The position numbers and the translations under genes are program-made. From IMG/VR virus record IMGVR_UViG_3300025929_000003, positions 4,421-68,420 of that record: 64,000 bases of DNA; one strand, given 5' to 3'. Of this stretch, positions 16,980 to 37,744 are shown piece after piece (position 1 is the first letter of the stretch; each line of letters begins with the position of its first letter). This stretch comes from a virus. Below the pieces are notes generated by a model. The model was not told the DNA's origin and did no database searches. It saw nothing but the letters and a program-made list of their open reading frames with translations.

Positions 16980-17436
16980 TAATAGTTGTCCCTATAGACA
17001 TTTTATTTATTTTAAAGAGTATACGCCTCAAGTCCATTTATCAAAAAATTTTATTATACCGTTTTTTAAACCACTGTTTTAGCATTATGTAGCGGAAGTG
17101 ATGCAGTAACCGCCCAAAAGACGGGGGTGGGTCTTCCGGTTTTAAATCACGTTTACTCAAGGCGGGTACCCTCGGATAAAAAGTATTTCTCACCAGCGGC
17201 AAGCAGACCGGCAGAGACGCAACCAACACGCACACGCGCAAAGCTGTTTAGGCAATAGACGCTAAGCAGAGGGGCACAGCAAGGCTTATCAACCAACCTA
17301 TACGCACAACCCATTTGCAAAAGCGGATAGTATTACGTTGCTTTGTATCGCACTACGACAAGCACTCTTGCAAAATACCTTTTTTAAGTTACATTTGATT
17401 TAAGGCTTGTTTTAGGCGATTTAAGACACTTTGTTT

Positions 17437-19091: not shown

Positions 19092-19340
19092 ATGTCAAAA
19101 GCTACAGAATATTACGAAAAACGTGTTAATAATATCAACACGATTAACGAGTGGATTTTAAAAGAAGGCTACGAAATTCACACTAACAGGGAGGGCGTTT
19201 TAACCTGCTTAGGCTTATACAAGCCAGCACCCACAAAGAACGATATACCCGAGTTTTTAAAGTACCTTAAACGTGGAGCACCCGCCGAGATAAATAATTA
19301 CGTACAGGGCATGTATGATGCCTTAAACCTTTGCAAATAA
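19092..19340 (+). CDS. Early hypothetical protein
   Basis: 82-aa ORF. Confidence 0.6.
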   Translation: MSKATEYYEKRVNNINTINEWILKEGYEIHTNREGVLTCLGLYKPAPTKNDIPEFLKYLKRGAPAEINNYVQGMYDALNLCK

Positions 19341-19347
19341 TATTACC

Positions 19348-19572
19348 ATGATAACCACCATCAACAATAGCCACAGGATATTTTTAATATCAGGCGACCA
19401 AAATACAAGCTATGTATGTAATTTGGAAGATGTAGAAAGGATTGTTTTATCCTTTGATGACTTATCATCTGTAAAGTTTCAACACCGTTGGAACGGCTAT
19501 TTTAAACACTGTTCTAAAAAATCAGTTATTGACATGCTTAAATCAATGAACCTTAATTATAAATTCTTATAA
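19348..19572 (+). CDS. Early hypothetical protein
   Basis: 74-aa ORF. Confidence 0.6.
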   Translation: MITTINNSHRIFLISGDQNTSYVCNLEDVERIVLSFDDLSSVKFQHRWNGYFKHCSKKSVIDMLKSMNLNYKFL

Positions 19573-19636
19573 CCATGCAAACCCTAAAACGCATCCTTGC
19601 AGCCCTTAGCCGATTTGCTAACAACTGCTAAAGAGA

Positions 19637-20279
19637 ACCATAACCCTAACAACCCATAGCCAGCAACGGCATGGGTTTAAGGAGGTACAAAGCAAGCCGT
19701 AACTAAAGGCAATAGGTTATGTAAAAGAGTAAACAACGCATGGTAAGCCCAGCAACGTAAACCCCAAGATGCCTAAAGCGCATAGCCTATCAAACGGCAT
19801 GCGCTTTAGGCAGTAGAAGCCCACAAGGTTTTTAGGCATCGCTGAAATTGCCTTAACGTTCAGCAAGGTTAACCCCGTATTAGCCGAGGGGACAGGCTAA
19901 AGGTCAAGCAAGATAGACCAAATTATCAAGCGTACTAAAGAAACGATATTCTTTCGCATTGCCGTAATTGCGTAACGGTAAGGTTAGCAAGTGATACCAA
20001 AAACTTGACGGTCGGGCAAACCGAATTTAACCCGCGTAGATACCTAAATTCCGCATAGCGGTGTATCCATCGAATAACTCTAAGGCTTGAAATAGTGCCA
20101 CGAGCAAAATAAAACGTAGCAAAGTGTGTACTTTGCCTGACGAGTTGAAAACAACGAAACGTAAAAACAGCGGATAGGGTGTAAGCTGTATAAATAAGCC
20201 GACCTAAAGGCTATAAAGGTGCATGAGCCGTAGAATGGTGACTACCTATCCCATTTATTAAACTTAAAAATCAAACGTT
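19637..20279 (+). ncRNA. Large structured non-coding block (hairpins, pseudoknots, hammerhead)
   Basis: No ORF of 60 aa or more; many inverted repeats visible (19651-19677, 19770-19812, 19873-19900, 19902-19919, 20167-20252). Confidence 0.6.
20114..20162 (+). ncRNA. Type III hammerhead ribozyme
   Basis: ACG-U-A | stem I GCAAAGT/ACTTTGC | CUGACGA | stem II GTTG-AAAA-CAAC | GAAA-CGT; all core nucleotides present; cleavage predicted after GUA at 20118. Confidence 0.9.
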
Positions 20280-20432
20280 ATGAAATACTTTTTAATTCGG
20301 CTTACATACGGTCGCTGGGCTTCGGTATATGCATACAATTCTGATGATGCTATAATTGCATACCACCTACTGTTTGATAAGACCGACAAAGAAGATGTTT
20401 TATCGGCCTATGCGCCACTTATACAACCATAG
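20280..20432 (+). CDS. Small hypothetical protein (50 aa)
   Basis: Hand-found ORF MKYFLIRLTYGRW... Confidence 0.5.
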   Translation: MKYFLIRLTYGRWASVYAYNSDDAIIAYHLLFDKTDKEDVLSAYAPLIQP

Positions 20433-20492: not shown

Positions 20493-20663
20493 ATGAAAAC
20501 AGATAAATATTACAAAGCGGTATGTATAGAAAAAACCGCTAAAGAGTTTGGTCAAATATTAGGACAAACAAAAACAGGCAATAAAAAAGGATTAAGTAAA
20601 GAAGATTTTGCCGAGGCTATGAATAATAGCACAGTTTACTCATTTGAAATTATAGAGTTTTAG
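20493..20663 (+). CDS. Small hypothetical protein (56 aa)
   Basis: Hand-found ORF MKTDKYYKAVC..., abuts the next gene. Confidence 0.5.
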   Translation: MKTDKYYKAVCIEKTAKEFGQILGQTKTGNKKGLSKEDFAEAMNNSTVYSFEIIEF

Positions 20664-20665
20664 TT

Positions 20666-21271
20666 ATGAAGATATTTAAACAACAGCCAATAGATTTAAT
20701 AAGGGTTAGGATTTACAAAGATAACGAACACGTTAAATATTTAAACCTCTGTGATACGACCGCTGACGAAGTTTTAGAAATGTGTAAGCAAGTTATTTTA
20801 AAACAAAACCTTTCTCCTTTTGCAACAGGCAAAAGAACGTCCATAGAGGTTAGGGAGGCTAAAGGGGCTAAGAATGGCAAAGCGCAATCTATACCATTTA
20901 AAGGGCTTGAAGTTGACGAAACCTATGAATTAATATTAAACGCCATAGAACAAGAAAGTAATCACTTTTCAGTAACACCCCCACCCGAAAGCAAGCGCAG
21001 AGAAACAGAATGTGAAGATATTGTAACAACCCTTAATAACGACATAGCCGCAAGCGGGTTGGATTTATCGTTTACATACTCAACAGATGGGTATTACCAA
21101 GCGATATGTTTTAATGATACTGTTTTGTGGAGTACGGATAATGACGAAAGAGATTTTGACGAAGATACCCAAGAATATATTCCGTTGCTTACTCATATCA
21201 TCGCACAATATCAAGATATTTTTGGTGAGATGAGTAAGTTAAACGAACGTTTTTTAGAGCGATTGAGATGA
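20666..21271 (+). CDS. Hypothetical protein
   Basis: 201-aa ORF. Confidence 0.7.
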   Translation: MKIFKQQPIDLIRVRIYKDNEHVKYLNLCDTTADEVLEMCKQVILKQNLSPFATGKRTSIEVREAKGAKNGKAQSIPFKGLEVDETYELILNAIEQESNHFSVTPPPESKRRETECEDIVTTLNNDIAASGLDLSFTYSTDGYYQAICFNDTVLWSTDNDERDFDEDTQEYIPLLTHIIAQYQDIFGEMSKLNERFLERLR

Positions 21272-21459
21272 ACAAATACGCCGCCACCCCCTGCAACATC
21301 AAAATGGTGTTAATGGCTAAAGACGTTAACGTTGAAAAGGTCTGCACCAACCTTTGGGAAGTTTACACCTTTGAACGGGATATGCCCACTAAGTATAAAC
21401 TGCAGTTCTCGGGCAAACCATATATTATAGCAACCTATTATTTAGACGCCATAAATTAA
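21268..21459 (+). CDS. Hypothetical protein
   Basis: ATGA overlap with the upstream gene. Confidence 0.55.
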   Translation: MNKYAATPCNIKMVLMAKDVNVEKVCTNLWEVYTFERDMPTKYKLQFSGKPYIIATYYLDAIN

Positions 21460-36657: not shown

Positions 36658-37229
36658 GTAAAAACCTAATTTGGAGTGCCGAAGATTTAAAGAAGAAAGG
36701 CTTGGTTCAAAACCAGTCGGGAGACTATGTGCCAGTTAAGTCATTAGTCAACACAGGGAAAGTTGAAAAGTTGCCTAATTTGTTAGAAAGGGCTTTAGAA
36801 CAGCGCTCACAGATGGTTAAACCCGCGGCTAACAAAAAGGTCAGGAATGCCACTAAATCAGTTGTGGACGGCGTGTCGTTTGATAGCAACCTCGAAAAGT
36901 ACCTGTATTTTGAACTAAAGTCCGCGGGTATCAATTTTGAGTTTCAAAAGACTTTCATACTGCAGCCTAGTTTTCGATACCGCGGCAAAGCAATTATCGC
37001 CATGAAGTCCATCTGTGACTTTTGGATAAGCGACCATAACCTGATTTTAGACGCCAAGGGATATGCCAATGAGACCAGTCCACTTAAGTATAAGCTATTG
37101 AAATACAAGTTTTACAAGGCTTATGAGAGTGGCGCAAGGAAGCGTGAACCGCCCGAGATAATTATGCCAAAGAATAGGAAAGAATGTGACGAGGTGGTTG
37201 CACGAATTAAAGCAGGAGAGTTTTTATGA
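36654..37229 (+). CDS. DUF1064-like PD-(D/E)xK endonuclease
   Basis: DGVSFDSNLE...ICDFWI...ILDAKG. Confidence 0.75.
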   Translation: MSKNLIWSAEDLKKKGLVQNQSGDYVPVKSLVNTGKVEKLPNLLERALEQRSQMVKPAANKKVRNATKSVVDGVSFDSNLEKYLYFELKSAGINFEFQKTFILQPSFRYRGKAIIAMKSICDFWISDHNLILDAKGYANETSPLKYKLLKYKFYKAYESGARKREPPEIIMPKNRKECDEVVARIKAGEFL

Positions 37230-37744
37230 ACCAAACATTTTTACAAAAATATGGTGACGTAGAGTTACGTTACTTAGGCTGGAAACAGCCATTCGCCAGT
37301 TTAATGCTACACGGGAAGATTGAAACACGGGTTTGGGATACCAAGTATCGTGGCTGGGTCTTGATTACTGCGAGTAAGGGCACGTATAACACCAACCAAA
37401 TAGAAGATATATCTGGCGTAACGCAGGGATATAGGATATTGAAACAGTTTAATGGCGACATAAAGTCTTTGCCAACGGGTAAAGCTATTGCAGTCGGTAG
37501 GTTGGTTGATAGTCGCCCAATGACAGTATCCGACGAGGATGCTTGCTTTGTCCAATATAAAGAACCATGGGTCGTTCCAGTCACAAGAGACTTCTTTGGT
37601 ACGCCTGTTACTACTTATAAGAACAAACAGTTGTGGTGCCACGTATACGAGGATGTACAACCAATAGAACCGCTTGAGTGGTACGGTAACCAAGGTTGGA
37701 ATACGCTTGATGTAGGGCATAAAGAGAAGATATTCCTCCTATGA
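37226..37744 (+). CDS. ASCH-domain protein
   Basis: KQPFASLMLHGKIETRVW...RG.VLITAS...YGNQGW. Confidence 0.8.
   Translation: MNQTFLQKYGDVELRYLGWKQPFASLMLHGKIETRVWDTKYRGWVLITASKGTYNTNQIEDISGVTQGYRILKQFNGDIKSLPTGKAIAVGRLVDSRPMTVSDEDACFVQYKEPWVVPVTRDFFGTPVTTYKNKQLWCHVYEDVQPIEPLEWYGNQGWNTLDVGHKEKIFLL

Follow-up and report, generated by a model that had tools for sequence, protein, structure and literature searches.

Does the 49-nt segment at 20114-20162 of this phage DNA encode a working type III hammerhead ribozyme, and if it does, what could a self-cleaving RNA be doing within a viral gene arm? The window, i.e. the whole 64-kb stretch that was analysed, covers bases 4421-68420 of a complete 71,233-bp IMG/VR record with direct terminal repeats. 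A search of sequencing runs returned a single run that contains the entire window, DNA from a microbial fuel cell metagenome, which is the probable source; no RNA runs containing the window DNA were listed in this search. Because hammerheads have been known from phages since 2011, the candidate is another example of a known element; what genome-encoded hammerheads do in vivo, in bacteria as in phages, is still a matter of hypothesis according to reviews (PMC6765202).

Sequence and structure of the motif

The plus strand at 20114-20162 reads ACGUA|GCAAAGU-GUGU-ACUUUGC-CUGACGA-GUUG-AAAA-CAAC-GAA-ACGU (49 nt) and is composed of the following elements:

20114-20117 (+), 5' strand of stem III (ACGU), four Watson-Crick pairs with 20159-20162; U20117 is U16.1
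20118 (+), H17, an A, within the GUA triplet 20116-20118; the predicted scissile bond is 20118/20119
20119-20136 (+), stem I hairpin, six pairs (GCAAAG/CUUUGC) and the loop UGUGUA; a seventh pair, U20125-A20130, is possible
20137-20143 (+), catalytic core strand CUGACGA (C3 U4 G5 A6 C7 G8 A9)
20144-20155 (+), stem II hairpin GUUG-AAAA-CAAC, four Watson-Crick pairs (20144-20147/20152-20155); G10.1:C11.1 is 20144:20155
20156-20158 (+), core GAA (G12 A13 A14)
20159-20162 (+), 3' strand of stem III (ACGU); A20159 is A15.1 and pairs with U20117

All core positions of a hammerhead are found here, namely C3-A9, G12-A14, the A15.1-U16.1 pair and an H17 that is not G (A20118). The three helices are joined to this core by the pairs G20119:C20136 (1.1-2.1), G20144:C20155 (10.1-11.1) and A20159:U20117 (15.1-16.1). 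An earlier note had claimed a complete core and a GUA triplet with the cut after 20118, and these are all present in the letters, as are the perfect stems I and II that it described: stem I has seven Watson-Crick pairs when the possible seventh is counted (20119-20125/20130-20136), and stem II has four. Stem III likewise has four. The order of the elements (5' strand of stem III, H17, hairpin I, core, hairpin II, GAA, 3' strand of stem III), with loops closing stems I and II and with stem III open and bearing the 5' and 3' ends, is the type III topology.

A loose type III descriptor of our own (stems of at least 4, 3 and 3 bp, G-U pairs allowed, hairpins of up to 60 and 50 nt) matched exactly one site on both strands of the 64-kb window, which is 20114-20162, and had no match in 400 dinucleotide-preserving shuffles. 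A chance origin of the motif is excluded. The candidate is also a single one, no further hammerhead copies being present in the 71-kb genome.

The Rfam hammerhead search that had been proposed as a check was run as well and gave no gathering match, although the motif is intact. In detail, Rfam 15 at gathering thresholds reported nothing in the whole window, the candidate falling short of the 48.5 bits set for RF00008 (Hammerhead_3), and the E-value mode returned at the site only a partial Hammerhead_1 match of 16.2 bits, with an overlapping lower match suppressed, so that the outcome of this check looks wrongly negative. Other ribozyme classes were not found by the E-value mode, neither in the whole window nor in 19300-20400.

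A phage hammerhead class with conserved loops

Relatives of the phage itself were sought by several routes. Blastn against 50,697 phage records yielded no match to this phage, an exact 26-mer was absent from IMG/VR, and the search for related loci with the 457-aa and 201-aa neighbour proteins found none, the latter protein having no homologue besides itself among 5.8 billion proteins. Since no close relative was found, the architecture of the motif was sought elsewhere. For this, IMG/VR was scanned with the pattern GUH-N18-CUGANGAG-N10-CGAAAC, which fixes the core, the two core-adjacent pairs of stem III and the lengths of the two hairpins; loops I and II are not part of it. The pattern was found at no fewer than 139 sites, at least, in at least 120 phage contigs (L003-L122; e.g. 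L055:8490-12977 on the minus strand and L022:2154-6270 on the plus strand). Comparing all ORFs of the genome with those of the hammerhead loci by blastp gave only distant matches of 25-37% identity (primase-helicase, terminase, portal and methyltransferase).

Among the matches listed, 122 of the 139 sites have at least six pairs in stem I, four in stem II and three in stem III, a combination that is expected by chance in only a few per 100,000 sites. The geometry of this class is fixed, with a 6-bp stem I carrying a UGUGUR loop and a 4-bp stem II carrying an RAAA loop. The unconstrained loops are conserved among the matches listed as U-G-(U/A)-G-U-R in loop I and (A/G)-A-A-A in loop II, at 87-99% per conserved position, and the loops of the candidate, UGUGUA and AAAA, fit this consensus at every conserved position. 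Stem III has four pairs or fewer in 24 of the 122 class members among the matches listed. H17 is A in 18 and C in 83 of 102 listed members, and N7 is C in 12 of the 102; the C at N7 and the A at H17 of the candidate are both common class variants.

Covariation was analyzed in 48 mutually diverse members, a set that was pre-filtered for paired stems, for which reason the unfiltered proportion given above is the fair pairing figure. In this set 98.3% of the cells pair, compared with 64.5% in partner shuffles and with 34-45% when the partners are slid by 1-3 columns in the same 48 sequences. Double-sided changes were counted in 268 cells versus 76 in the shuffles, and all six pairs of stem I covary within the class. 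A covariance model (R1) was then built from the 48 members, with the window excluded, and used with filters off to search the window. It aligns with the candidate over its full length (1-53) at 62.7 bits (E 8.6e-17), the runner-up in the window reaching 13.6 bits. The class itself spans 45-78 bits, and sites that share nothing but the search pattern reach at most 27 bits. Where the candidate departs from the consensus, it does so in pairs. Its loop-closing pair in stem II is G-C in place of the usual C-G, a compensatory double change that is also present in 4 of the 48 model sequences, and stem III contains one A-U pair where the consensus has C-G.

JGI metagenomes were scanned with a half-pattern consisting of stem I, loop I and CUGANGAG, which was found at 19 sites in 14 contigs. 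At all 19 the rest of a hammerhead follows (a hairpin for stem II, GAAAC and a stem III that matches), and none of the 14 contigs is syntenic with the window. From the loops, the R1 score, the compensatory pairs and these JGI sites it follows that the candidate is a bona fide member of the class; this membership, like the motif, is directly established. The assignment of 20114-20162 as a genuine, sequence-intact type III hammerhead ribozyme with predicted self-cleaving activity, which had first been made from the letters, is thus strongly supported by the class covariance model, by the conserved loops of the tertiary contact and by the covariation among relatives. The conservation of both loops is presumed to imply a tertiary contact between loop I and loop II, and a contact of this kind makes natural hammerheads fast (PMC3088659).

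As a separate observation, the stem I/loop I sequence GCAAAG-UGNGUN-CUUUGC is shared by the hammerheads of 14 unrelated contigs (L124-L137), with stems II, III and the flanks differing among them. This recurrence hints at modular spread or at a preference for this stem I sequence.

The class as a whole is poorly reached by Rfam. No hammerhead was reported at gathering thresholds on 10 other phage loci holding 14 pattern-matching sites, and the top class member is aligned end to end by Hammerhead_3 with 43.5 bits (E 7e-8), which is below the cut-off. The silence of Rfam reflects limits of the model and is not evidence against the RNA. Within type III hammerheads (RF00008, clan CL00010), the sTRSV-like extended form, in which loop I makes a tertiary contact with loop II, is closest in design. 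It has the same core and topology as the candidate, stem III being open and stems I and II closed; its stem I of 6 bp ends in a loop of the U-G-N-G type, and its stem II of 4 bp carries a purine-rich tetraloop. The candidate and the phage class differ from RF00008 in remaining below its gathering threshold of 48.5 bits and in a loop II of AAAA/GAAA, and in contrast to the hammerheads of viroids and satellite RNAs the candidate is encoded in a double-stranded DNA phage genome. A blastn search with L022, meant to connect the class with named phages, yielded a single weak match, to an uncultured Caudoviricetes, and typical class sequences did not occur in a string search of the literature or in the supplements of Perreault 2011.

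Genome setting and proposed role

The genes of the window are arranged in three arms. Minus-strand genes at 0.6-16.8 kb include those for portal, large terminase, DNA methyltransferase, primase-helicase and HNH endonuclease, the region of 17.4-38.7 kb is essentially all plus-strand, with many small ORFs belonging to no family, an AAA_24 protein and an HTH protein, and minus-strand structural genes occupy 41.9-63.7 kb. All ORFs of at least 120 aa in 17431-38697 are on the plus strand except 37307-37720, which lies inside plus-strand ORFs (37226-37744), and the AT skew is positive across 18-38 kb. Judged from this uniform gene orientation and the positive skew, plus-strand transcription through the ribozyme, about 2.7 kb into the arm, is likely. 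That the transcript is an early one, as it had been labelled, we infer from the gene orientation, from the small size of the ORFs and from a box at 17390 that may be promoter-like. This is a Bacteroidota -7 box (TAnnTTTG) ahead of the first plus-strand ORF, and no further one follows on the plus strand up to the ribozyme. TAnnTTTG is not enriched in the window (80 versus 76), and a sigma-70 promoter and terminator scan of 16.5-21.5 kb remained at shuffle background (19 versus 16.7).

The ribozyme is situated within a 707-nt gap (19573-20279) that has no plus-strand ORF of at least 40 aa and that provides its two flanks:

19573-20113 (+), ORF-free, highly structured stretch of 541 nt, which would be the 3' part of the upstream product
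20163-20279 (+), leader of 117 nt that separates the ribozyme from the following ORF (50 aa, ATG at 20280); folding z-score -0.6, not unusual

A perfect 17-bp hairpin is present at 19770-19812, inside the first of these flanks.

The best explanation overall, which by analogy with other members of the class we regard as probable, is a functional type III hammerhead that cuts the plus-strand operon RNA co-transcriptionally. The tertiary-stabilised ribozyme would be made in the sense orientation of the plus-strand gene arm, its stems I, II and III forming once RNA polymerase has passed 20162. Loop I (UGUGUA) would then dock with loop II (AAAA) and thereby align stems I and II, and the 2'-OH of A20118 would attack its own 3' phosphate. 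The upstream product is predicted to end in ...AAAACGUA with a 2',3'-cyclic phosphate, and the downstream product to start with the 5'-OH of G20119, buried in the stem I hairpin. Such a cut would part the ORFs up to 19572, along with a structured non-coding stretch of RNA about 540 nt long, from the genes at ORF 20280 and onward. The two RNA halves could then differ in stability or translation, the hairpin-capped 5'-OH end of the downstream half being expected to resist 5'-end-dependent decay.

The literature on related elements is consistent with this proposal. Cleavage in the course of in vitro transcription is known from clustered hammerheads of phages and prophages, the 5' end of a halovirus early transcript maps to a hammerhead site, and the hammerhead of haloviruses HF1/HF2 is located just upstream of an early gene; it has been proposed that polycistronic transcripts are cut by phage hammerheads into RNAs of gene length (PMC3088659). 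The clustered hammerheads of phages and prophages resemble the candidate in their sense-strand, intergenic position in phage operons and in the role proposed for them, the conversion of long phage transcripts into gene-length RNAs, but are mostly type II or mixed clusters that flank genes, whereas the candidate is a lone type III hammerhead in a long non-coding gap (Perreault et al. 2011, PMC3088659). Self-cleavage of the plus-strand RNA at 20118/20119 in infected cells appears likely. That the site is transcribed, that the RNA is cut in vivo and that its stability changes in consequence is what we infer. The role suggested in the earlier note, i.e. the splitting of the operon RNA and a downstream 5'-OH end, agrees with the same-strand intergenic placement of the class and with the published hypothesis (PMC3088659) and is retained as the best-supported reading, qualified in that it draws on class analogy and literature. 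For the annotation of the phage genome, 20118/20119 can be entered as a predicted RNA processing site, and the candidate adds one intact hammerhead from an orphan phage lineage of a microbial fuel cell metagenome.

The class cassette and competing readings

The placement of the class was observed directly: listed members lie between genes, in the orientation of the flanking ORFs, with a median distance of 37 nt from the preceding stop codon and of 34 nt (mode 22-32 nt) to the start codon downstream. The 40 nt 5' of the ribozyme contain a strong GC-rich hairpin in 85 of 110 non-redundant listed sites, the remaining 25 failing the cut-off of -10 kcal/mol, and the class median for these 40 nt is -15.1 kcal/mol versus -5.7 in a control segment. 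The hairpin, of which GUGUC-UUCAAA-GACAC and GGGGC-UUCG-GCCCC are recurrent forms, ends 2-3 nt from the core-adjacent pairs of stem III and is followed by a U run in 4 of the 110. The usual layout is therefore a strong hairpin, the ribozyme, about 25-35 nt and a start codon. The number of copies per genome is 1-5, and they lie close together, within a few kb and on one strand. Examples of this cassette, to which about 80 further sites can be added, are:

L004:13300-13392, hairpin, hammerhead and short leader
L011:4409-4500, the same layout
L023:550-645, the same layout

A cut in such a cassette would give an upstream RNA with a 3' hairpin and a cyclic phosphate, and a downstream RNA whose 5'-OH is enclosed by stem I, some tens of nt ahead of the start codon. 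By analogy, the combination of hairpin, UGUGUR/RAAA hammerhead, short leader and start codon suggests a self-contained intercistronic processing unit. In T7-like phages, host RNase III cuts the transcripts between genes, and the upstream RNA then ends in a 3' hairpin. These RNase III sites can be seen as a functional analogue, as the class hairpin and ribozyme would act alike without a host enzyme; the chemistry of the class differs from that of RNase III in being a self-cleavage that gives 2',3'-cyclic phosphate and 5'-OH ends, and the candidate itself has no adjacent hairpin. The possibly more useful by-product of this analysis is thus a large and easily defined phage subclass below the Rfam gathering threshold with a stereotyped cassette, whose layout suggests a testable function, host-independent intercistronic processing that provides a hairpin-protected 3' end and a hairpin-capped 5'-OH end.

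The candidate departs from this typical context. Its upstream 40 nt reach only -5.3 kcal/mol, weaker than in 102 of the 110 listed class members, and it lies 541 nt past the previous ORF, with the next ORF starting 118 nt downstream. A cassette context is not required for catalysis. The long distances could mean that the main job of the ribozyme is to make the 3' end of a structured non-coding RNA of about 540 nt (19573-20118) and not to process mRNA, a sub-case of the main explanation that we consider rather unlikely. In its favour, the ribozyme follows the last ORF only after 541 nt within the ORF-free gap, a start codon at the usual 25-35 nt downstream is absent, and the 541 nt upstream fold with a z-score of -3.9, none of 100 shuffles being as stable. 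The minus strand of the same stretch, however, folds equally unusually (z-score -4.6), and the folding signal may therefore stem from palindromes or hairpins at the DNA level and not from a specific plus-strand RNA. Moreover, 19573-20113 matches no Rfam family, no homologues were found, and as no protective hairpin adjoins the cut the released 3' end would be exposed. Since both strands fold well and no RNA family matches, the release of a non-coding RNA upstream is a possibility and not a finding. We hold equally tentatively a joint reading, in which the lone hammerhead makes the 3' end of this RNA (19573-20118) and the cassette is a host-independent equivalent of RNase III; if true, it would open to direct test what hammerheads do for bacteria and phages, a question of long standing.

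A further reading takes the hammerhead to be intact in sequence but decaying or inefficient, the relic of a module acquired by recombination that cleaves poorly in its present context. A single copy without the flanking hairpin and nearby start codon of the class would fit this, as would the occurrence of an identical stem I and loop I in unrelated contigs, which suggests modular spread. The helices are AU-rich, stem III has 4 bp, and the secondary structure of the hammerhead amounts to -9.4 kcal/mol, only 10 of 102 listed members being weaker, which places it in the weakest tenth of the class. In addition, nearest-neighbour minimum free energy (MFE) favours competing pairings over the hammerhead fold by 1.5-3.4 kcal/mol. 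In one of them CGU at 20115-20117 pairs with A6-C7-G8; in another, found in the MFE structure of the whole gap, 20075-20101 pairs with 20124-20147, a segment that takes in the CUGACGAG of the core and the 3' strand of stem I; in this model the pairing could compete with ribozyme folding, its advantage over the ribozyme fold being only 2-3 kcal/mol. Because such energy gaps ignore tertiary stabilisation and the order of co-transcriptional folding, our confidence in efficient cleavage is only slightly lowered, and the former objection applies to the 2-3 kcal/mol at issue here in particular. Against decay also speaks that not one core or tertiary-loop position is mutated and that, where the candidate deviates from the consensus, both partners of a pair have changed in a compensatory way (C-G to G-C in stem II, C-G to A-U in stem III); compensatory changes around an intact core are a signature of purifying selection. 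A relic is in our judgement improbable, and a functional ribozyme that cuts the operon RNA is preferred.

Least credible, to a degree that makes it negligible, is the idea that the resemblance arose by chance or that the site is some other element, e.g. a terminator hairpin of the minus strand: the lack of an Rfam gathering match, the folding z-score of only -1.6 for the isolated 49-mer and the stem I hairpin with a following T-rich sequence, flagged as terminator-like on the minus strand, could be cited for it, but Rfam thresholds also miss class members, and chance is effectively refuted by the shuffles, by the R1 score and by a class with full stems and conserved loops whose consensus the candidate fits. 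The minus-strand terminator at the stem I hairpin was dismissed, as 17.4-38.7 kb has no convincing minus-strand genes that it could terminate.

Finally, two soil runs from another study contain short contigs of low depth, none covering the ribozyme, that are about 92-99% identical to coding sequence at 20596-20843 and 21249-21447, from which it follows that a soil relative of this otherwise orphan phage exists.
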